Shown in pieces: positions 2,232-40,774 of a stretch of DNA of 64,000 nt. The position numbers and the translations under genes were made by a program. The first letter of the stretch is position 1; every line of letters begins with the position of its first letter. The notes beneath the pieces are model-generated. The model had not been told where the DNA came from. It saw only the letters and a list, made by a program, of their open reading frames with translations, and ran no database searches. Source of the DNA: Candidatus Sulfopaludibacter sp. SbA3 (lineage in GTDB: Bacteria; Acidobacteriota; Terriglobia; Bryobacterales; Bryobacteraceae); NCBI GenBank assembly GCA_945890485.1, contig CAMDCN010000004.1, forward strand, positions 353,813 through 417,812, in the 5' to 3' direction.

Positions 2232-3146
2232 TCAGCTAGTGGCGGCGTCCTCCAATTCCTCTCGCTGATTTTCGCGGCCCTTCACCACTTCCAAAAAAGC
2301 CCTTGCGGCGTGCGACAGCGCCCGCCGGGCGGGATAGACCAAATGCACCTTTCGGGCCACGGTCAATTCCTCGACGCGCACTTCCCGAAGCTGTCCCCGC
2401 TCAATTTCAGCGTCTACACACATCTTCGGAAGGAAGGCGACCCCTTCGTTCCGCTGCACCAACTGGCGAATCGTCTCGACAGTGGGCATCTCGACGTCCA
2501 TATTCAGCGGCACACGGTGGCGCTGGAACTCACGCAAAACCACCTCCCGATAGGGAGAAAGCACGTTGTGGGCGATGAATGTCTCCATGCCCAGCTCCGT
2601 GATCGAAACGCTCGAACGCTCGGCAAGCCGGTGATCCGGGCTTACTACGAACGCCAGATGGTCGGTGAAGATCACCTGAGCCTGCAGCCGGTCATCCTGC
2701 GGATCAAAAGAGATGACGCCAAGTTCCAGTTCACCGTCGATGAGTTGGCTGGGAATCTTACTCGACAAACTCCGGCGGACCCGCACCTTCACTTTGGGAT
2801 AGAGGCGGCGATATCGCACAATGTGCTGCAGCAAATAAAGACTGGTCGATTCGTTGGCGCCAACAATCAGAACCCCGGCCGAGTTATCCCGCATTTCCGC
2901 CAAGGCGGTATTCATCTCGAGCGCGAGGTGTTCGAACCGCCGCGCAAAGTCAAAAGCGATTTTGCCAGCATCGGTGAGAAGGAGTTCCTTGCCCGACCGA
3001 TCGATCAGCTTTTCGCCGAGCTCATGCTCCAGGCGCTGCACAGCGAGCGAAACGGCAGGCTGGGTGCGAAGCAGTTTCTCGGCGGCCCGGGAAAAGCTCT
3101 TCTCGTTGGCGACGGTCTGGAATACACGAAGTGAGTACAGTTCCAT
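2232..3146 (-). CDS. LysR family transcriptional regulator
   Basis: N-terminal wHTH (LRVFQTVANEKSFSRAAEKLLRTQPAVSLAVQRLE) plus a LysR substrate-binding domain. It is divergent from the leu operon. Confidence 0.9.
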   Translation of the reverse strand: MELYSLRVFQTVANEKSFSRAAEKLLRTQPAVSLAVQRLEHELGEKLIDRSGKELLLTDAGKIAFDFARRFEHLALEMNTALAEMRDNSAGVLIVGANESTSLYLLQHIVRYRRLYPKVKVRVRRSLSSKIPSQLIDGELELGVISFDPQDDRLQAQVIFTDHLAFVVSPDHRLAERSSVSITELGMETFIAHNVLSPYREVVLREFQRHRVPLNMDVEMPTVETIRQLVQRNEGVAFLPKMCVDAEIERGQLREVRVEELTVARKVHLVYPARRALSHAARAFLEVVKGRENQREELEDAATS

Positions 3147-36533: not shown

Positions 36534-37451
36534 CTATAACTGGCCGCTCAGCAACTTTTCCAGGAACCCTCGCTGCACCGCCCAGCGGCCCGTGACGACA
36601 GATCTTTCGCGAGCAAACGTGCCGCTCGTTAAAATGCCACTCAAGTCAGAGGAGTTCGGTTTCTGCTGCACATTCTCGAGGTACTTGCGAAACACCTCGG
36701 TCACTCCGCGCAGTTGGCTCTCTAAACCACCTGCCGCTCCCTCCGTCGCGCATTCGGCGCGCAAGCGCAGCTCAGCGCCGTCACCAGAGGATTGCAGACC
36801 CAAGGTGACTACCTTGGCGTCTCCCAAAGCCTTCACAAAAAGCTTCGTCCCAGCCGGCAGGGACTCGTTGTTGCGTAAGGCTTCCCCAAAGCCGCCCGCC
36901 CAGACCGGAGCGTCGGGCGGCGGCAATAAGTTGGGAATGTTATCTTGCAGTTTCAGCACGGCCCAGTCGTTCGTAGAAACGGCCATGCCAATCATCGAAT
37001 TATGAAGCGGGGTGAAAGAGACCACCCGCTTTGGCGTGGTCGCCGGCATCCGGCAAACGCCATTGCGGCAAATCCCGTTCGATCGCTTGGTATGCGCCTG
37101 AATGGCCTTCCAGTCAAAACGTCCGGTCGCGACGATGAACACTTCAGAGTTCGCAAATCCGACAAGCGCCGAATCGAGGTCGGCGCGATAGTCAAACCCT
37201 GTCGAAGCGACAAAAGCCCGATAATCGGCGTCCTCCGTTACATTCTGCCCGGAAAGCAGCGCCATGAGTCCGGACTTTCGCAGGCTCTCAAAATCCAGAT
37301 ACACGGCGCTGGTCCCAGCGGGTAACCGGTTCATCCGTTCAGCTAAGGAAGGAACCTTGCGCGAACGGTTCCAAACTAAGCCGCCGGCGATGGCTGCGCA
37401 AGCAACCACCACCAAAATCGCGGCTGTCCAATTGTGCCAACGGAAACGCAT
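36534..37451 (-). CDS. membrane-anchored hypothetical protein
   Basis: Single N-terminal TM helix (WTAAILVVVACAAIAGGLVW) followed by a 270-aa soluble domain. No family recognised. Confidence 0.6.
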   Translation of the reverse strand: MRFRWHNWTAAILVVVACAAIAGGLVWNRSRKVPSLAERMNRLPAGTSAVYLDFESLRKSGLMALLSGQNVTEDADYRAFVASTGFDYRADLDSALVGFANSEVFIVATGRFDWKAIQAHTKRSNGICRNGVCRMPATTPKRVVSFTPLHNSMIGMAVSTNDWAVLKLQDNIPNLLPPPDAPVWAGGFGEALRNNESLPAGTKLFVKALGDAKVVTLGLQSSGDGAELRLRAECATEGAAGGLESQLRGVTEVFRKYLENVQQKPNSSDLSGILTSGTFARERSVVTGRWAVQRGFLEKLLSGQL

Positions 37452-37468
37452 GGATAAAGCTTACACTG

Positions 37469-38518
37469 TTACGCCGTAACTGCTTCCCCTACGCGCGCAC
37501 TCTTCCACAACGAGATATAAGGCGCCAGTTCCTTCATCATTTTGCGGAACTGGTCCAGCGTCAGACTCTGCGCCCCGTCGCTGACGGCCTTCTCCGGGCA
37601 CGGATGCGTTTCGACGATCAGGCCATCGGCGCCAATCGCCACGCCCGCGCGACAGAGCGGCGGAACCAGGCTGCGTTTGCCCACCGCGTGCGAAGGATCG
37701 AGCACTACCGGCAGATGCGTCAACTCATCGAGCACCGAAACCGCCGTGATGTCGCAGGTGTTGCGGGTAGCCGTCTCAAAGGTACGGATGCCGCGCTCGC
37801 ACAGCATGATGTTCGGATTGCCGTGCGCCACAATGTACTCGGCCGACATCAACAGTTCTTTAATCTGCGCGCTCAGCCCGCGCTTCAGCATGATCGGACG
37901 GCCACAGGATCCCAGCCGCTTCAGCAGCGCAAAGTTCTGCATGTTCCGCGCGCCAATCTGCAGAATGTCCGCGTACTCGGCCACCAGGTCGACGTCCTTC
38001 TCCGCCATCACTTCGGTGATGATGGCCAGGCCGGTTGCCTCGCGCGCCTTCGCCAGCAGTTTCAACCCGTCGCCTTCCATGCCTTGGAAGTCATAGGGTG
38101 AGGTGCGCGGCTTAAATGCACCACCCCGCAGAATCTGCGCCCCGGCCTCAGCCACGGCGTAGGCCGACTCCATAATCTGCTTCTCATTCTCGACCGAGCA
38201 GGGCCCGGCCATCATCACGAAATCATCGCCGCCGATCTCGATCGGGCCGGTGTGCGTGCGCACCGTGATCACCGTCGGAGCGGATTTGTACTCTTTCGAT
38301 ACGAACTTGTAGGGCGCGGAGATGCGGACGGCCTTTTCGACCTGCGGCATCGCTTCGAGCGATTCCAAGCAATTGGTGACGTCACCGACACCGACCACTC
38401 CGATTACGCAGCGCTCTTCTCCTTCGATGGCATGGATTTTGTAACCGAAGTGACGGATGCGGTCGCATACGGCTTCGATATCTTCCTTGGTGCTGTGGAT
38501 TTTCATAGAAATGATCAT
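37469..38518 (-). CDS. 3-deoxy-7-phosphoheptulonate (DAHP) synthase, type I-beta with N-terminal ferredoxin-like regulatory domain
   Basis: The N-terminus parallels the Thermotoga-type enzyme ([17 protein letters not shown]...ERCVIGVVG). The catalytic barrel has the GPCSVE, KPRTSPY and LDPSH motifs. Confidence 0.92.
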
Positions 38519-38553
38519 GGTTTTCTTCTGCCTCGAAAGAACGGATCTCCCCT

Positions 38554-38585
38554 AAACGCGAAAAACCCACTCTTCCGAGTGGGTT
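38554..38585 (-). terminator. intrinsic terminator (attenuator) in the DAHP synthase leader
   Basis: Minus-strand AACCCACUC-GGAA-GAGUGGGUU followed by UUUCGCGUUU, ending 35 nt upstream of the DAHP synthase ATG. Confidence 0.8.
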
Positions 38586-38635
38586 GGTTTTTTGGGTTGA
38601 GAACTTTTTGTCCTACCGCCGGGCCAACGCCACTC
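38577..38635 (-). promoter_or_regulatory. antiterminator pairing competing with the attenuator stem
   Basis: GAGUGG-c-GUUGG (38635-38624, inside the leader ORF 3' end) is complementary to CCAAC-CCACUC (38587-38577), the 5' arm of the terminator. This gives 11 bp with one bulge. Confidence 0.55.
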
Positions 38636-38696
38636 GCTCGATTTGGTAATACCACCAAAATCGAAACGTGGGAAAATTGGCGCCCGGGGCTGACAT
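38613..38696 (-). CDS. aromatic-amino-acid leader peptide (27 aa)
   Basis: ATG 38696 to TAG 38613 encodes MSAPGANFPTFRFWWYYQIERVALARR, checked codon by codon. F8, F11, F13, W14, W15, Y16 and Y17 are clustered. It sits between a promoter-like element and the attenuator. Confidence 0.65.
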   Translation of the reverse strand: MSAPGANFPTFRFWWYYQIERVALARR

Positions 38697-38704
38697 CTGA
38701 ACCT

Positions 38705-38733
38705 AGTGTACACAGACCTCAAAAAGATTGCAA
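38705..38733 (-). promoter_or_regulatory. sigma70-like promoter TTGCAA-N17-TACACT
   Basis: Hexamers read on the minus strand with a 17-nt spacer. The -10 element ends 8 nt before the leader ATG, implying a very short or absent 5' UTR. Confidence 0.4.
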
Positions 38734-38787
38734 GAGGCAGTAAATAGGTTATTTTTGCGTTACACCTAGCCGAGGTGTTATCGGCCC

Positions 38788-39366
38788 CTACCAGGCCCGA
38801 GACCAGCGTGGGCCCGGCTTAGCGTTTAGGTCCCGCAAGGCCGACTGCGCCTTCGCGTCCACCTCCAATTTTCGACCGAACAGCCATAGCAGATCGCTCA
38901 GGCGATTCAAGTACGCCAACACGTGCGGGGCCAACTCCTCTTCCTCGCCCAAGCGCACCACGTGGCGCTCCGCCCGGCGGCAGATCGTGCGCGCCAGATC
39001 GTAGGACGCCCCCGCCGGGTCGCCGCCCGGAACCGACCAATCACTCAGGAGGCCGGCCATCGCTTCATGCGCATGGACCTGGGCGGTAAGGGCGTCCACC
39101 ATCAATTCGGTCACCGGAGGCTCACCCTTTCGCGCGTCGGGCGGTGTCGCCAACGCGGCGCCCACCTGAAACAGCTCCTGCTGAATCGCGAGCGTCGCCG
39201 CGGCGATCGCCTCATCGGCGCATATCGACCGGGCAAAACCCAGCGCCGCGTTCAACTCGTCGACGGTTCCATAAGATTCAACACGTAGGGCGCCCTTCGA
39301 GACGCGTTGGCCCCCGACGAGGCTGGTCTGGCCGGCATCGCCGAGCTGGGTAGCAATAGATGACAT
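38788..39366 (-). CDS. ATP:cob(I)alamin adenosyltransferase, PduO type
   Basis: GDAGQTSLVGG...VSKGALRVESYGTVDELNAALG motif. I chose the start at internal ATG 39366 because the longer ORF would overlap the upstream DUF1501 gene. Confidence 0.85.
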   Translation of the reverse strand: MSSIATQLGDAGQTSLVGGQRVSKGALRVESYGTVDELNAALGFARSICADEAIAAATLAIQQELFQVGAALATPPDARKGEPPVTELMVDALTAQVHAHEAMAGLLSDWSVPGGDPAGASYDLARTICRRAERHVVRLGEEEELAPHVLAYLNRLSDLLWLFGRKLEVDAKAQSALRDLNAKPGPRWSRAW

Positions 39367-39373
39367 GAGGTGT

Positions 39374-40774
39374 TTAAGCGAAGAGACGGTTGTGAACTTT
39401 TCCCTTGCCATCCTTAGTGACGTAAAAGGGACGCTGTTCGATTTCGTATTTTGTGTCGGGAGCGATGCCAAGAGCTGAATAGAGGCTCGCGTGCAGATCT
39501 TCGATGCCGATCGGGTCCTTTATCGTTTTGCAGGGCCGCTCCGGCGCGGTCTCTCCATACACGGAGCCCTTTTTGATGCCGCCGCCGAACGCAAGCACGC
39601 TCACCGCGTCGGTAAAGTGACGGTGCATGCCGTAATGCTTCAAGTCGGTCATCACTTCGGGCACGGTCACCTGATTCTTTACTTCGAGGCCCGGCTTGCC
39701 CTCTGTCATCATGTCCCGGCCAAACTCGGTCGCCACCACGACAAGCGTCGTATCCAGCAGACCGCGCTGTTCGAGATCGAGGATCAACTGGGCAATCGGC
39801 GCGTCGATCGTCTGTTTCATCCCGCGGACGCGCGTGTGACCATTCTCGTGGGTATCCCAGAATCGGAACGGGATGTATTCGGTGGTCACTTCGATAAACC
39901 GGGCGCCCGCTTCCACCAGCCGGCGGGCCAGAAGGCAGCCAAGGCCAAACCGCGAGGTGTTGTAGGTGCTATAGATCTTCTCCGGTTCAAGAGACAAGTC
40001 GAAGGCCTTCGCGGCTGGTGAGGTGAGCAACCGGTGGGCGTTGTCGAGCGAGTTCAGGAAGCTCTCTTTCTGGGCGTCGCTTCCCCGGTGAATCGGCGAA
40101 GCAGCCAGCAGCTTGCGATGCAGCTCCCGCCGGCTGGTGAATCGGCTTTGGCCGATCAGCTCATTCGGCCGCGTCACCGCAACGGCATCGCGGGGGTCGA
40201 CAATGTGGAACGGACCATACTCCGCGCCGAGGAAACCCGCCGTATGAAACGCCTTTACGGCATCGGACTCGCCGCCAATCTCCAGGTTCTGGCCGATCGA
40301 AAGAAACGCGGGAATATCCGGGTTCTTCTTGCCTAGGGTTCGCGCCACGAACGCCCCAAAATGCGGGCAGGCCACGCTCTGCGGCGGGGCGTAGCCGGTG
40401 TGCCAGTGGTATTGATGCCGCGAATGCAGAATGAACCCGAGATCACCCACCCGGTGTGACCGGATCAGCGTCCCGCGATCCATCACGCTGGCGATCTTCT
40501 CCAAACCCTCCGATATCTGCACCCCATCAATGGCGGTGGGGATCGGCTTGAATGTGGAGAGCACCCGGTCGCTGGCCAAACCCGATTCGTAGGCCGTATA
40601 CCGTTTGGGGTCGAACGTCTCGGTTTGCGCCATGCCACCGGCCATCCACAGCAGAATCATGCTGTCGGCCTTGCCCGAGCGTGGCGCCGAAAGCAGCCGG
40701 GGACTGTTGCCGTGCAACGCAGCGAGCGTGGCCGCCGCTCCATGGCGAAGGAAAAAGCGGCGATCAATCGACAT
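39374..40774 (-). CDS. DUF1501 domain-containing protein (sulfatase-like fold) with Tat signal
   Basis: N-terminus MSIDRRFFLRHGAAATLAAL. It shows the typical DUF1501 length and the pairing downstream of a PSD1/DUF1553 gene. Confidence 0.88.
   Translation of the reverse strand: MSIDRRFFLRHGAAATLAALHGNSPRLLSAPRSGKADSMILLWMAGGMAQTETFDPKRYTAYESGLASDRVLSTFKPIPTAIDGVQISEGLEKIASVMDRGTLIRSHRVGDLGFILHSRHQYHWHTGYAPPQSVACPHFGAFVARTLGKKNPDIPAFLSIGQNLEIGGESDAVKAFHTAGFLGAEYGPFHIVDPRDAVAVTRPNELIGQSRFTSRRELHRKLLAASPIHRGSDAQKESFLNSLDNAHRLLTSPAAKAFDLSLEPEKIYSTYNTSRFGLGCLLARRLVEAGARFIEVTTEYIPFRFWDTHENGHTRVRGMKQTIDAPIAQLILDLEQRGLLDTTLVVVATEFGRDMMTEGKPGLEVKNQVTVPEVMTDLKHYGMHRHFTDAVSVLAFGGGIKKGSVYGETAPERPCKTIKDPIGIEDLHASLYSALGIAPDTKYEIEQRPFYVTKDGKGKVHNRLFA

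Follow-up and report, generated by a model that had tools for sequence, protein, structure and literature searches.

A Candidate Ribosome-Mediated Attenuator with a Phe/Trp/Tyr-Rich Leader Peptide at the Entry to the Shikimate Pathway in Terriglobia

Introduction

In Escherichia coli, the trpL and pheL leaders follow the Yanofsky model of attenuation: an upstream open reading frame (uORF) carries codons for the end product, the transcript can form mutually exclusive 1:2, 2:3, and 3:4 helices, the last followed by a U-tract, and the position of the ribosome decides among them. Both leaders control terminal branches, and the common-pathway entry enzyme of E. coli is under TyrR/TrpR repression. 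Here, we describe the region 38733-38554 on the minus strand of a 64-kb stretch of DNA (hereafter the window, that is, the whole stretch of 64,000 nt analyzed) from Candidatus Sulfopaludibacter sp. SbA3 (Acidobacteriota; contig CAMDCN010000004.1). It lies upstream of a gene for 3-deoxy-D-arabino-heptulosonate 7-phosphate synthase (DAHPS). From computation alone, we consider it very likely that this region is a ribosome-mediated attenuator that sets DAHPS expression by the supply of charged tRNA-Phe, tRNA-Trp, and tRNA-Tyr. It has the same parts as trpL/pheL, namely a uORF with end-product codons and exclusive helices with a U-tract, and the position of the ribosome would likewise decide the outcome. 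In contrast to trpL/pheL, the acidobacterial leader would sense three amino acids at once and control the entry enzyme of the common pathway. Its uORF is seemingly leaderless and has no Shine-Dalgarno sequence, its 1:2 hairpin is not conserved in the family, and it has no sequence or covariance-model similarity to the leader families of Rfam.

An earlier reading of the letters of this stretch, made without database searches (the sequence-only reading), had proposed the attenuator and had matched it to no described case outside the proteobacterial pheL/trpL paradigm. Two systems contradict the latter claim. In Corynebacterium glutamicum, attenuation of a DAHPS gene was shown experimentally, according to the account in PMC11802643; the aroR leader peptide attenuates the aroF DAHPS operon by ribosome stalling at aromatic codons (Neshat et al. 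2014, as summarized in PMC11802643 and PMC7356990). The AroR peptide has Phe-Tyr-Phe and, in the summary given there, responds to limitation for Phe and not for Tyr (Neshat et al. 2014, as summarized in PMC11802643). As far as these summaries describe it, the corynebacterial system resembles ours in having a leader peptide gene 5' of a DAHPS gene outside the Proteobacteria, and we liken the two by function only; in contrast to Phe-Tyr-Phe, the acidobacterial leaders have 4-10 aromatic codons, nearly always including Trp, and the phylum differs. The second case is a prediction. The uORFC-13-1 motif of Acholeplasma is a predicted uORF with Phe codons that directly precedes an intrinsic terminator and occurs before no gene other than the DAHPS gene aroF (Brewer et al. 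2021, PMC8632094). It shares with our locus a Phe-codon uORF and an intrinsic terminator before a DAHPS gene; however, it has been found in Acholeplasma and environmental sequences only, it comes with a ribosome-binding site, and its U run encodes at least one Phe, with no mixed Phe/Trp/Tyr cluster (PMC8632094).

Leaderless leader peptides are also known, in Streptomyces lividans (trpL1, ilvL, and leuL; PMC8079986) and in Deinococcus deserti (14 predicted; PMC4007540), and mycobacteria have leaderless attenuators with polycysteine (Cys-rich) small ORFs. None of the cases reported for S. lividans (PMC8079986) and D. deserti (PMC4007540) concerns DAHPS or a leader for all three aromatic amino acids. 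Their starts were mapped by RNA-seq, whereas we infer the acidobacterial leaderless start from the spacing of a -10-like hexamer alone.

Acidobacteria are among the most abundant soil phyla and their gene regulation is almost uncharacterized; in a survey of 2010, almost none of the predicted acidobacterial attenuators had assigned functions. Our literature search found nothing joining Acidobacteria, a leader peptide, and an aromatic amino acid; subscription-only comparative-genomics papers on attenuation lay outside this search, and an earlier prediction is possible. We regard the leader as a well-supported, new, and phylogenetically broad example of classic attenuation, not as a new kind of mechanism, and the understanding of how attenuation works is left unchanged. 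Its distinctive points are the integration of three aromatic amino acids, the apparently leaderless uORF, and a conserved CGA-UUU codon pair. It is a conserved and easily testable cis-regulatory system for the entry to the shikimate pathway in Terriglobia, and its addition to RNA family databases could improve the annotation of many metagenome-assembled genomes. The sequences indicate that Terriglobia may combine allosteric control, through the ferredoxin-like regulatory (FXD) domain of DAHPS, with attenuation integrating three aromatic end products in one leader, and they give indirect evidence that leaderless translation may be used in Acidobacteria.

Elements of the Leader in the Window

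The sequence-only reading had placed five elements on the minus strand (a promoter, a uORF, a hairpin, an antiterminator strand, and a terminator), and all five can be read from the sequence at those coordinates. Together with the regulated gene, the features are as follows.

38728..38733, minus strand: -35-like hexamer TTGCAA, read from the sequence
38705..38710, minus strand: -10-like hexamer TACACT, with a 17-nt spacer from TTGCAA and 8 nt before the uORF ATG
38613..38696, minus strand: leader uORF, ATG at 38696, 27 codons plus TAG (38615-38613), MSAPGANFPTFRFWWYYQIERVALARR
38646..38675, minus strand: regulatory codon cluster F8-Y17, 7 of 10 codons aromatic (F8, F11, F13, W14, W15, Y16, Y17)
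38658..38663, minus strand: in-frame CGA-UUU (Arg12-Phe13), a codon pair kept in orthologues
38609..38695, minus strand: long 1:2 hairpin (candidate anti-antiterminator or pause hairpin), within the minimum free energy (MFE) fold of the full leader, -31.6 kcal/mol alone
38665-38637, minus strand: inner hairpin CGAUUUUGGU/ACCAAAUCG around the WWYY codons, within the MFE fold
38624..38635, minus strand: predicted antiterminator 5' strand GAGUGGCGUUGG (segment 2, uORF codons 21-24), complementary to the terminator 5' arm
38577..38587, minus strand: shared strand CCAACCCACUC (segment 3), both antiterminator 3' strand and terminator 5' arm, from duplex and folding calculations
38564..38585, minus strand: terminator hairpin AACCCACUC-GGAA-GAGUGGGUU, 9 bp, -14.7 kcal/mol, from folding and conservation
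38554..38563, minus strand: U-rich tail UUUCGCGUUU (with the UU of the stem end, UUUUUCGCGUUU), read from the sequence
37469..38518, minus strand: DAHPS gene, type I-beta, with N-terminal ferredoxin-like (FXD) regulatory domain, 349 aa, PF18152 and PF00793

The aromatic cluster of the uORF is exceptional in the window. In all six frames, this is the one stop-free run of 10 codons with at least seven Phe, Trp, or Tyr codons; the expected number, taken as the mean of 100 first-order Markov simulations of the window, is 0.03. In the cluster, Phe is always encoded by UUU, and Tyr by both UAU and UAC.

The proposed pairing of 38635-38624 with 38587-38577 was also sound. We searched for the best duplex of the terminator 5' arm with the region from the first aromatic codon to the terminator, taking dinucleotide shuffles as the control; in the window, the duplex GAGUGGCGUUGG/CCAACCCACUC reached -16.7 kcal/mol versus -8.0 +/- 1.9 kcal/mol for the shuffles (z -4.65). 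The terminator (38585-38554) is present as proposed, and 35 nt separate the end of its U-tract at 38554 from the DAHPS ATG at 38518.

The assignment of the regulated gene to type I-beta DAHPS with a ferredoxin-like domain is supported by Pfam (PF18152, DAHP synthase ferredoxin-like, 2.9e-18; PF00793, DAHP_synth_1, 5.3e-78) and by the alignment of residues 1-332 to the Thermotoga maritima DAHPS structures 1RZM/1VR6/3PG9 (E ~1e-102). The DAHPS class of C. glutamicum aroF probably differs from that of the acidobacterial enzyme.

Conservation of the Leader in Terriglobia

Using the DAHPS protein as the query, we collected 80 loci from a set with one genome per GTDB species and 80 metagenome loci, and the 450 nt upstream of each orthologue were scanned without bias for short ORFs rich in aromatic codons. 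The closest DAHPS relatives (~70-85% identity) belonged to metagenome-assembled genomes labeled Bryobacterales, Bryobacteraceae, Solibacteraceae, Candidatus Sulfopaludibacter, Candidatus Acidoferrum/Acidoferrales, and Terriglobia. Nearly all of these relatives had such an ORF, as did several loci of Terriglobales (~51-52% identity). In the same 450-nt scan, no aromatic ORF with the accompanying elements was found at the Myxococcota, Nitrospirota, Gemmatimonadota, Bacillota, and other matches. Aromatic-rich ORFs upstream of DAHPS at three Clostridia/Bacillota loci (L041, L074, and L078; 7-9 of 10 residues aromatic) were set aside, being in AT-rich DNA and without the arrangement of promoter, terminator, and antiterminator; the T/A-rich composition of the leaders there probably accounts for them. 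The curated set had 47 nonredundant leaders (24 from genomes and 23 from metagenomes) from three orders of Terriglobia, with DAHPS of the FXD type.

Phe is present in all 47 leaders, Trp in 45, and Tyr in 45, and the three occur together in 43. The mean leader has 22 residues, of which 6.5 are aromatic. In most of the closest acidobacterial orthologues of both collections, the aromatic ORF stops 79-125 nt before the DAHPS ATG, the distance rising to ~230 nt at some loci. The peptides, e.g., MRYPAYTFAYRFWWRSPAY, MQITGYNTFWYRFWSFTPEP, MNRGAYSYWFRFWYPPI, and, in Terriglobales, MTRFTSFTVQFRYWFSAV..., vary in sequence, length, aromatic positions, and spacing, while the aromatic composition is kept. 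In 24 leaders, Phe, Trp, and Tyr made up 29% of the residues versus 4.8% in DAHPS. Codon choice also differed from that of the DAHPS genes: 77% of the Phe codons in leaders were UUU (34% in DAHPS genes), and 49% of the Tyr codons were UAU (27% in DAHPS genes). This bias suggests a preference for wobble-decoded codons and fits the sensing of tRNAs.

The promoter-like geometry noticed in the window (TTGCAA-N17-TACACT) recurs in the orthologues. A TAnnnT hexamer ends 6-12 nt 5' of the uORF start in 38 of 47 leaders, versus 4 of 47 at a control offset, and, among those with TAnnnT, TTGnnn stands 16-18 nt 5' of this -10-like hexamer in 31 of 47 leaders. No Shine-Dalgarno sequence was found 5' of the orthologous uORF starts in the 47 leaders. 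In one leader (L015), the uORF start is GTG, 7 nt after TATACT. The conserved -10 spacing implies a transcription start at or near the uORF start codon, and the uORF mRNA would be leaderless or nearly so, in agreement with the sequence-only reading. Related spacing was seen at two loci of related DAHPS genes (L022 and L043; 63% and 72% identity) without the attenuator (2975-3003 in each), where a TATACT or TATCCT hexamer stands just 6 nt before the DAHPS ATG itself. This suggests that the DAHPS mRNA may be leaderless there and that leaderless translation may occur in the lineage.

A perfect hairpin followed by a T-rich tract is present in 47 of 47 leaders, 22-65 nt before the DAHPS ATG (98-154 nt at a few loci). 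Bryobacterales/Acidoferrales have CCCACUC(G)-loop-(C)GAGUGGG as the core, and Terriglobales have GCCGCGAU-loop-AUCGCGGC. In the MAFFT alignment of 35 leaders, 97.3% of the cells of the terminator helix were paired, while slid registers gave at most 51%. Four pairs have changed on both sides (the one next to the CCC/GGG core, for example, is A-U, G-C, or G.U), and the covariation score was reached by 0 of 500 shuffles. Each locus has a single copy of the hairpin, invariably 5' of DAHPS, and the window likewise has one. Two other origins of the hairpin were rejected: it is not a generic genomic terminator or repeat, being single per locus and in the window, nor the terminator of the upstream gene, which differs at every locus and is separated from the hairpin by the promoter.

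The second helix is the predicted antiterminator. The duplex with the terminator 5' arm had a mean z of -2.65 and p<=0.05 in 17 of 24 leaders. Fixed-column pairing reached 73.7% in the 35 aligned leaders, versus at most 43.5% in slid registers. The forms GAGUGG(C)GUUGG or (G)CGAGGGGC of segment 2 match the terminator arm (CCAA/GR)CCCACUC(G). At the locus L008, a compensatory change runs through all three strands: GAGCGG pairs with CCGCUC, and the 3' arm reads GAGCGGG. In leaders of Terriglobales, segments of the GCGGC type are complementary to GCCGCGAU, and at the locus L111 the terminator arm AGCCCAC has its complement in GUGGGCU, a segment that overlaps the stop codon. When arms were swapped between clades, the leader's own 5' arm outperformed those from the opposite clade in 40 of 48 leaders (p=4.6e-8). 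The predicted antiterminator is backed by register-specific complementarity and clade-level co-variation, not by many independent compensatory changes.

The antiterminator strand of Bryobacterales/Acidoferrales lies in the last codons, on the stop, or at most 19 nt past the stop; it spans -25 to +19 nt about the stop and is 9-17 nt past the last aromatic codon. At this position, the strand would be covered by a ribosome that terminates and left open by one that stalls, as attenuation requires.

Competing Structures and the Proposed Mechanism

The MFE of the 143-nt leader (38696-38554) was -54.3 kcal/mol and consisted of the 5' hairpin (38695-38609) and the terminator. In the outer part of this 1:2 hairpin, the first codons pair with GUGG.GUUGGCCCGG, so that the antiterminator strand is sequestered. 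When the antiterminator was enforced (GAGUGG-C-GUUGG, 38635-24, with CCAAC-CCACUC, 38587-77), the energy was -48.2 kcal/mol. Taken alone, the antiterminator hairpin had -23.7 kcal/mol, against -14.7 kcal/mol for the terminator hairpin. Folds under ribosome masks follow the attenuation logic. For these, the transcript was folded as it stands just before the terminator 3' arm is made, with a ribosome footprint of -15 to +13 about the A-site codon. In the window, the antiterminator was the MFE structure with the footprint at F11 or W14; at the stop codon, just a 6-bp remnant across a large loop was left; and with no ribosome, the 1:2 hairpin formed and the terminator 5' arm was free. The probability that the 5' arm is captured was ~1.0 for stalls at F8-W15, 0.94 at Y16, 0.15 at Y17, 0.52 with the footprint on the stop codon, and 0.23 for the ribosome-free transcript. 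Under these ribosome masks, the modeled folding of the window is the textbook four-segment logic. In 24 leaders, the mean capture was 0.75 for the stalled state, 0.43 for the stop codon, and 0.61 with no ribosome, and capture was higher in the stalled state than at the stop codon in 19 of 24 leaders (Wilcoxon p=3.7e-5).

So, the following sequence of events is proposed. Transcription would start at, or a few nucleotides before, the uORF AUG, and the 27-codon leader would be translated from a leaderless or near-leaderless 5' end. When aromatic aminoacyl-tRNAs are plentiful, the ribosome would reach the UAG and cover the 3' half of segment 2 (GAGUGGCGUUGG); after its release, segment 1 would recapture segment 2. 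Segment 3 (CCAACCCACUC) would then be free to pair with segment 4, and the hairpin and U-tract would terminate transcription 35 nt before the DAHPS start. If one or more of the three charged tRNAs run short, the ribosome would stall in F8-Y16, melting the 1:2 hairpin and exposing segment 2. Segment 2 would pair with segment 3 once the latter is transcribed, no terminator would form, and RNA polymerase would enter DAHPS and probably the 305-aa gene that follows it. The ribosome-mediated attenuation by a Phe/Trp/Tyr uORF that the sequence-only reading had advanced is thereby upheld at the level of prediction by the 47 leaders, the terminator covariation, the clade co-variation, and the masked folding.

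Several results weigh against this reading, or against parts of it. First, the window promoter fits only 8 of 12 consensus positions and is under the threshold of a strict sigma-70 scan, which for this reason gave no promoter call. Second, the antiterminator duplex was no better than shuffles in 7 of 24 leaders, and within the Bryobacterales/Acidoferrales clade, where its complementarity is conserved, its covariation did not exceed that of shuffled controls, as the core is nearly invariant. Third, the 1:2 hairpin had a mean z of -0.35 in the family and was below -1.64 in only 6 of 47 leaders. The WWYY-enclosing hairpin (38663-38639 in the sequence-only reading) is thus present in the window MFE and yet appears from the family to be a sub-family feature that is not kept across it. 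Fourth, the best antiterminator segment of four Terriglobales-type genome leaders lies 21-48 nt upstream of the stop, so masking at the stop codon fails to explain them, and their capture probabilities in the stalled and stop states were alike; these leaders may work by other timing or by another helix. Fifth, complete leaders at equilibrium favored the terminator in nearly all ribosome states, so the model depends on a kinetic, co-transcriptional competition, as classic attenuators likewise do. The equilibrium terminator probability was dropped as a test, since it did not discriminate and the decision is kinetic, and was replaced by 5'-arm capture in the transcript that still lacks the 3' arm. 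Finally, the attenuation model does not predict the conservation of the CGA-UUU codon pair, which is treated in the next section.

The scans by consensus were not decisive for the terminator either. The hairpin of the window was called on the plus strand only; the minus-strand hairpin was not called because its tail has only 4 U in the scored window. We therefore replaced the strict sigma-70 and terminator consensus scans by the conservation analysis above. On the plus strand, an A-run flanks the hairpin at 38564-38595, which reads there as a hairpin plus GGTTTTTTGG, and no convergent plus-strand gene is evident; the same A-run beside the hairpin extends the minus-strand stem in part. The missing promoter call, together with terminator-like sites that are not enriched in the 3-kb region (2 found vs. 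3.1 expected), is what could be said for a coincidence, i.e., a spurious small ORF beside a terminator of the upstream gene or beside a stabilizing 5' hairpin. Against such a coincidence stand the aromatic run (7 of 10 codons, 0.03 expected per window), the co-occurrence of uORF, promoter spacing, terminator, and antiterminator at 47 orthologous loci with unrelated upstream genes, and the specificity of the hairpin for the position upstream of DAHPS. By the comparative sequence data, chance appears effectively refuted, and we assign it almost no probability.

Another possibility is that the pairings modulate the ribosome-binding site of DAHPS, or that the uORF acts by reinitiation or coupling, the U-tract being incidental. 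The unconstrained MFE of the 187-nt 5' region is relevant here: the terminator was replaced by a 20-bp G.U-rich helix (38579-38532, minus strand) that reaches just upstream of the DAHPS ribosome-binding region. This helix joins the terminator loop and 3' arm with downstream sequence (CUCGGAAGAGUGGGUUUUUC / GGGGAGAUCCGUUCUUUCGAG) and ends just before the ribosome-binding region. Moreover, an ORF at one variant locus (L020, see below) crosses the hairpin and overlaps the DAHPS start. However, the 20-bp helix, with its CUCUUUCGAG element, is recognizable only in the closest relatives L001 and L002, the T-rich tract that follows the hairpin in all 47 leaders is a hallmark of intrinsic termination, and a distance of 22-154 nt between terminator and ATG gives no fixed relation to the ribosome-binding site. 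Translational control is therefore considered highly improbable. From the folding, the 20-bp helix is possibly a structure of the read-through transcript that lies outside the switch.

A switch operated by a trans-acting factor or ligand (a T-box-like tRNA, a TRAP- or PyrR-like protein, or a riboswitch), with the uORF secondary or untranslated, was weighed as well. Such a switch would account for two features, the core CCCACUC(G)...(C)GAGUGGG being conserved in sequence across orders beyond the need of a generic terminator, and CGAUUU being conserved at the nucleotide level. Nevertheless, the three-way constraint on the shared strand and the coding overlap can explain this sequence conservation. 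A cmscan of 37000-40000 against all 4227 families of Rfam 15 at E<=10 gave six matches, all with E>2 and far below the gathering score; none was to an amino acid leader (Trp_leader, Phe_leader, leu-phe_leader, Bacteroid-trp, and others) or to the T-box. The element is consequently not assignable to an existing RNA family, and the match to an Rfam leader family that the sequence-only reading had thought worth seeking is absent at this threshold. The RNAalifold consensus of 16 full leaders contained the terminator only, with no conserved structured domain between promoter and terminator beyond the competing helices. Conservation extends to the reading frame, the distance from the start to the -10 hexamer, the position of the antiterminator relative to the stop, and the aromatic composition, a combination that translation alone accounts for. 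We give very little credence to a trans-acting factor or ligand, and attenuation by the translating ribosome remains the preferred reading.

The Conserved CGA-UUU Codon Pair

An in-frame CGA-UU(U/C), encoding Arg-Phe, is present in 38 of 47 leaders from both clades. CGA accounts for 39% of the Arg codons in leaders versus 9% in DAHPS genes, and the synonymous third base of CGA-UUU is kept against the genomic codon preference. CGA is read by an I:A wobble and UUU by a G:U wobble. No consistent RNA pairing partner for CGAUUU was found across the leaders (mean z -0.42). CGAUU pairs with AAUCG, closing the hairpin of the regulatory codons, in the window and in L003, L008, L010, L014, L081, L089, and L091.

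The pair may be a slow codon pair sensitizing the stalling, a contribution of the nascent peptide, or another contact. Specifically, CGA-UUU, which is often followed by UGG and whose CGA is rare in these genomes, might be a programmed slow-decoding or arrest module setting the sensitivity of the attenuator, or contributing to the stalling through the nascent peptide (Arg-Phe-Trp); we put this forward as a tentative and rather doubtful idea. If it is true, a codon-pair "sensitizer" is built into the attenuator and conserved across orders of Terriglobia.

The same codon pair bears on whether the signal is charged-tRNA scarcity at all. Sensing could instead operate through the nascent peptide, by a TnaC-like arrest in which the exit tunnel possibly binds Trp, Phe, or Tyr as free amino acids, or a programmed slow codon pair could do the sensing; the switch would be the same, and the signal or its sign may differ. 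The occurrence of Arg-Phe in 38 of 47 leaders across orders, with the third base kept and no RNA partner, would fit this, and so would the recurrent F/Y-R-F-W core and the PP(N/I)-stop endings of one sub-family, which resemble arrest peptides. However, beyond Arg-Phe the peptides vary in sequence, length, and aromatic positions while the composition is kept, which is the signature of codon sensing, and the enrichment of UUU and UAU fits tRNA sensing. Furthermore, an arrest by free amino acids has the wrong sign for a biosynthetic gene, as the end product would induce it. We consider sensing through the nascent peptide or a slow codon pair unlikely and retain attenuation by the supply of charged tRNAs.

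Neighboring Genes and Variant Loci

One further gene of the window is relevant to the transcription unit.

36534..37451, minus strand: 305-aa gene without a Pfam family, starting 17 nt past the DAHPS stop

Homologues of this 305-aa gene (30-38% identity) stand directly 3' of DAHPS in 10 leader-bearing loci, and by this arrangement it is probably co-transcribed with DAHPS in one operon and co-regulated by the attenuator. The gene upstream of the leader in the window encodes a PduO-type cobalamin adenosyltransferase and was not found in any other leader-bearing locus. Since the upstream gene is not shared while the 305-aa gene is kept 3' of DAHPS in ten loci, the leader is part of the DAHPS transcription unit.

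A perfect inverted repeat (ACACC-TCGGCTA-GGTGT, 38762-38778) lies ~30 nt 5' of the -35-like hexamer, just past the stop of the upstream gene, and ACACC-N6-9-GGTG repeats are also found 5' of DAHPS in L002, L022, and L043. The repeat could be an operator or a 3' hairpin of the upstream gene, and the evidence for either is weak; the pattern ACACC-N7-GGTGT has 2 matches in the window versus 1.3 expected and is too short to be assessed.

Some loci deviate from the family. Two metagenomic loci (L126:1025-1200 and L111:1-201; DAHPS identity of 57% and 63%) have analogous aromatic leaders, MDLRHLWSWWFYFSGVCPPIGGA and ...HGYACFAFYFTSPTGGGVG, with terminator stems wholly unlike those of the rest of the family; L126 seemingly has a Shine-Dalgarno sequence and two successive hairpins. 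In two others (L016:2880-2975 and L020:800-915), the CCCACTC...GAGTGGG-T6 hairpin is kept with no aromatic uORF upstream, and a -10-like hexamer stands immediately before the hairpin. An ATG-started ORF of L020 crosses the hairpin (MPTPGEWVFSFATDERFFFQGNRP), its TGA overlapping the DAHPS ATG, and in this frame the terminator 3' arm and U-tract encode E-W-V-F. The two loci may represent a rearranged variant with translation running through the terminator.

The peptides ending in PP(N/I)-stop form a sub-family of eight loci (L006, L019, L083, L090, L096, L098, L102, and L113) in which the antiterminator strand lies just past the stop. Polyproline before a stop codon slows elongation and termination. 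By analogy, such an ending could prolong the masking of the antiterminator by the ribosome.

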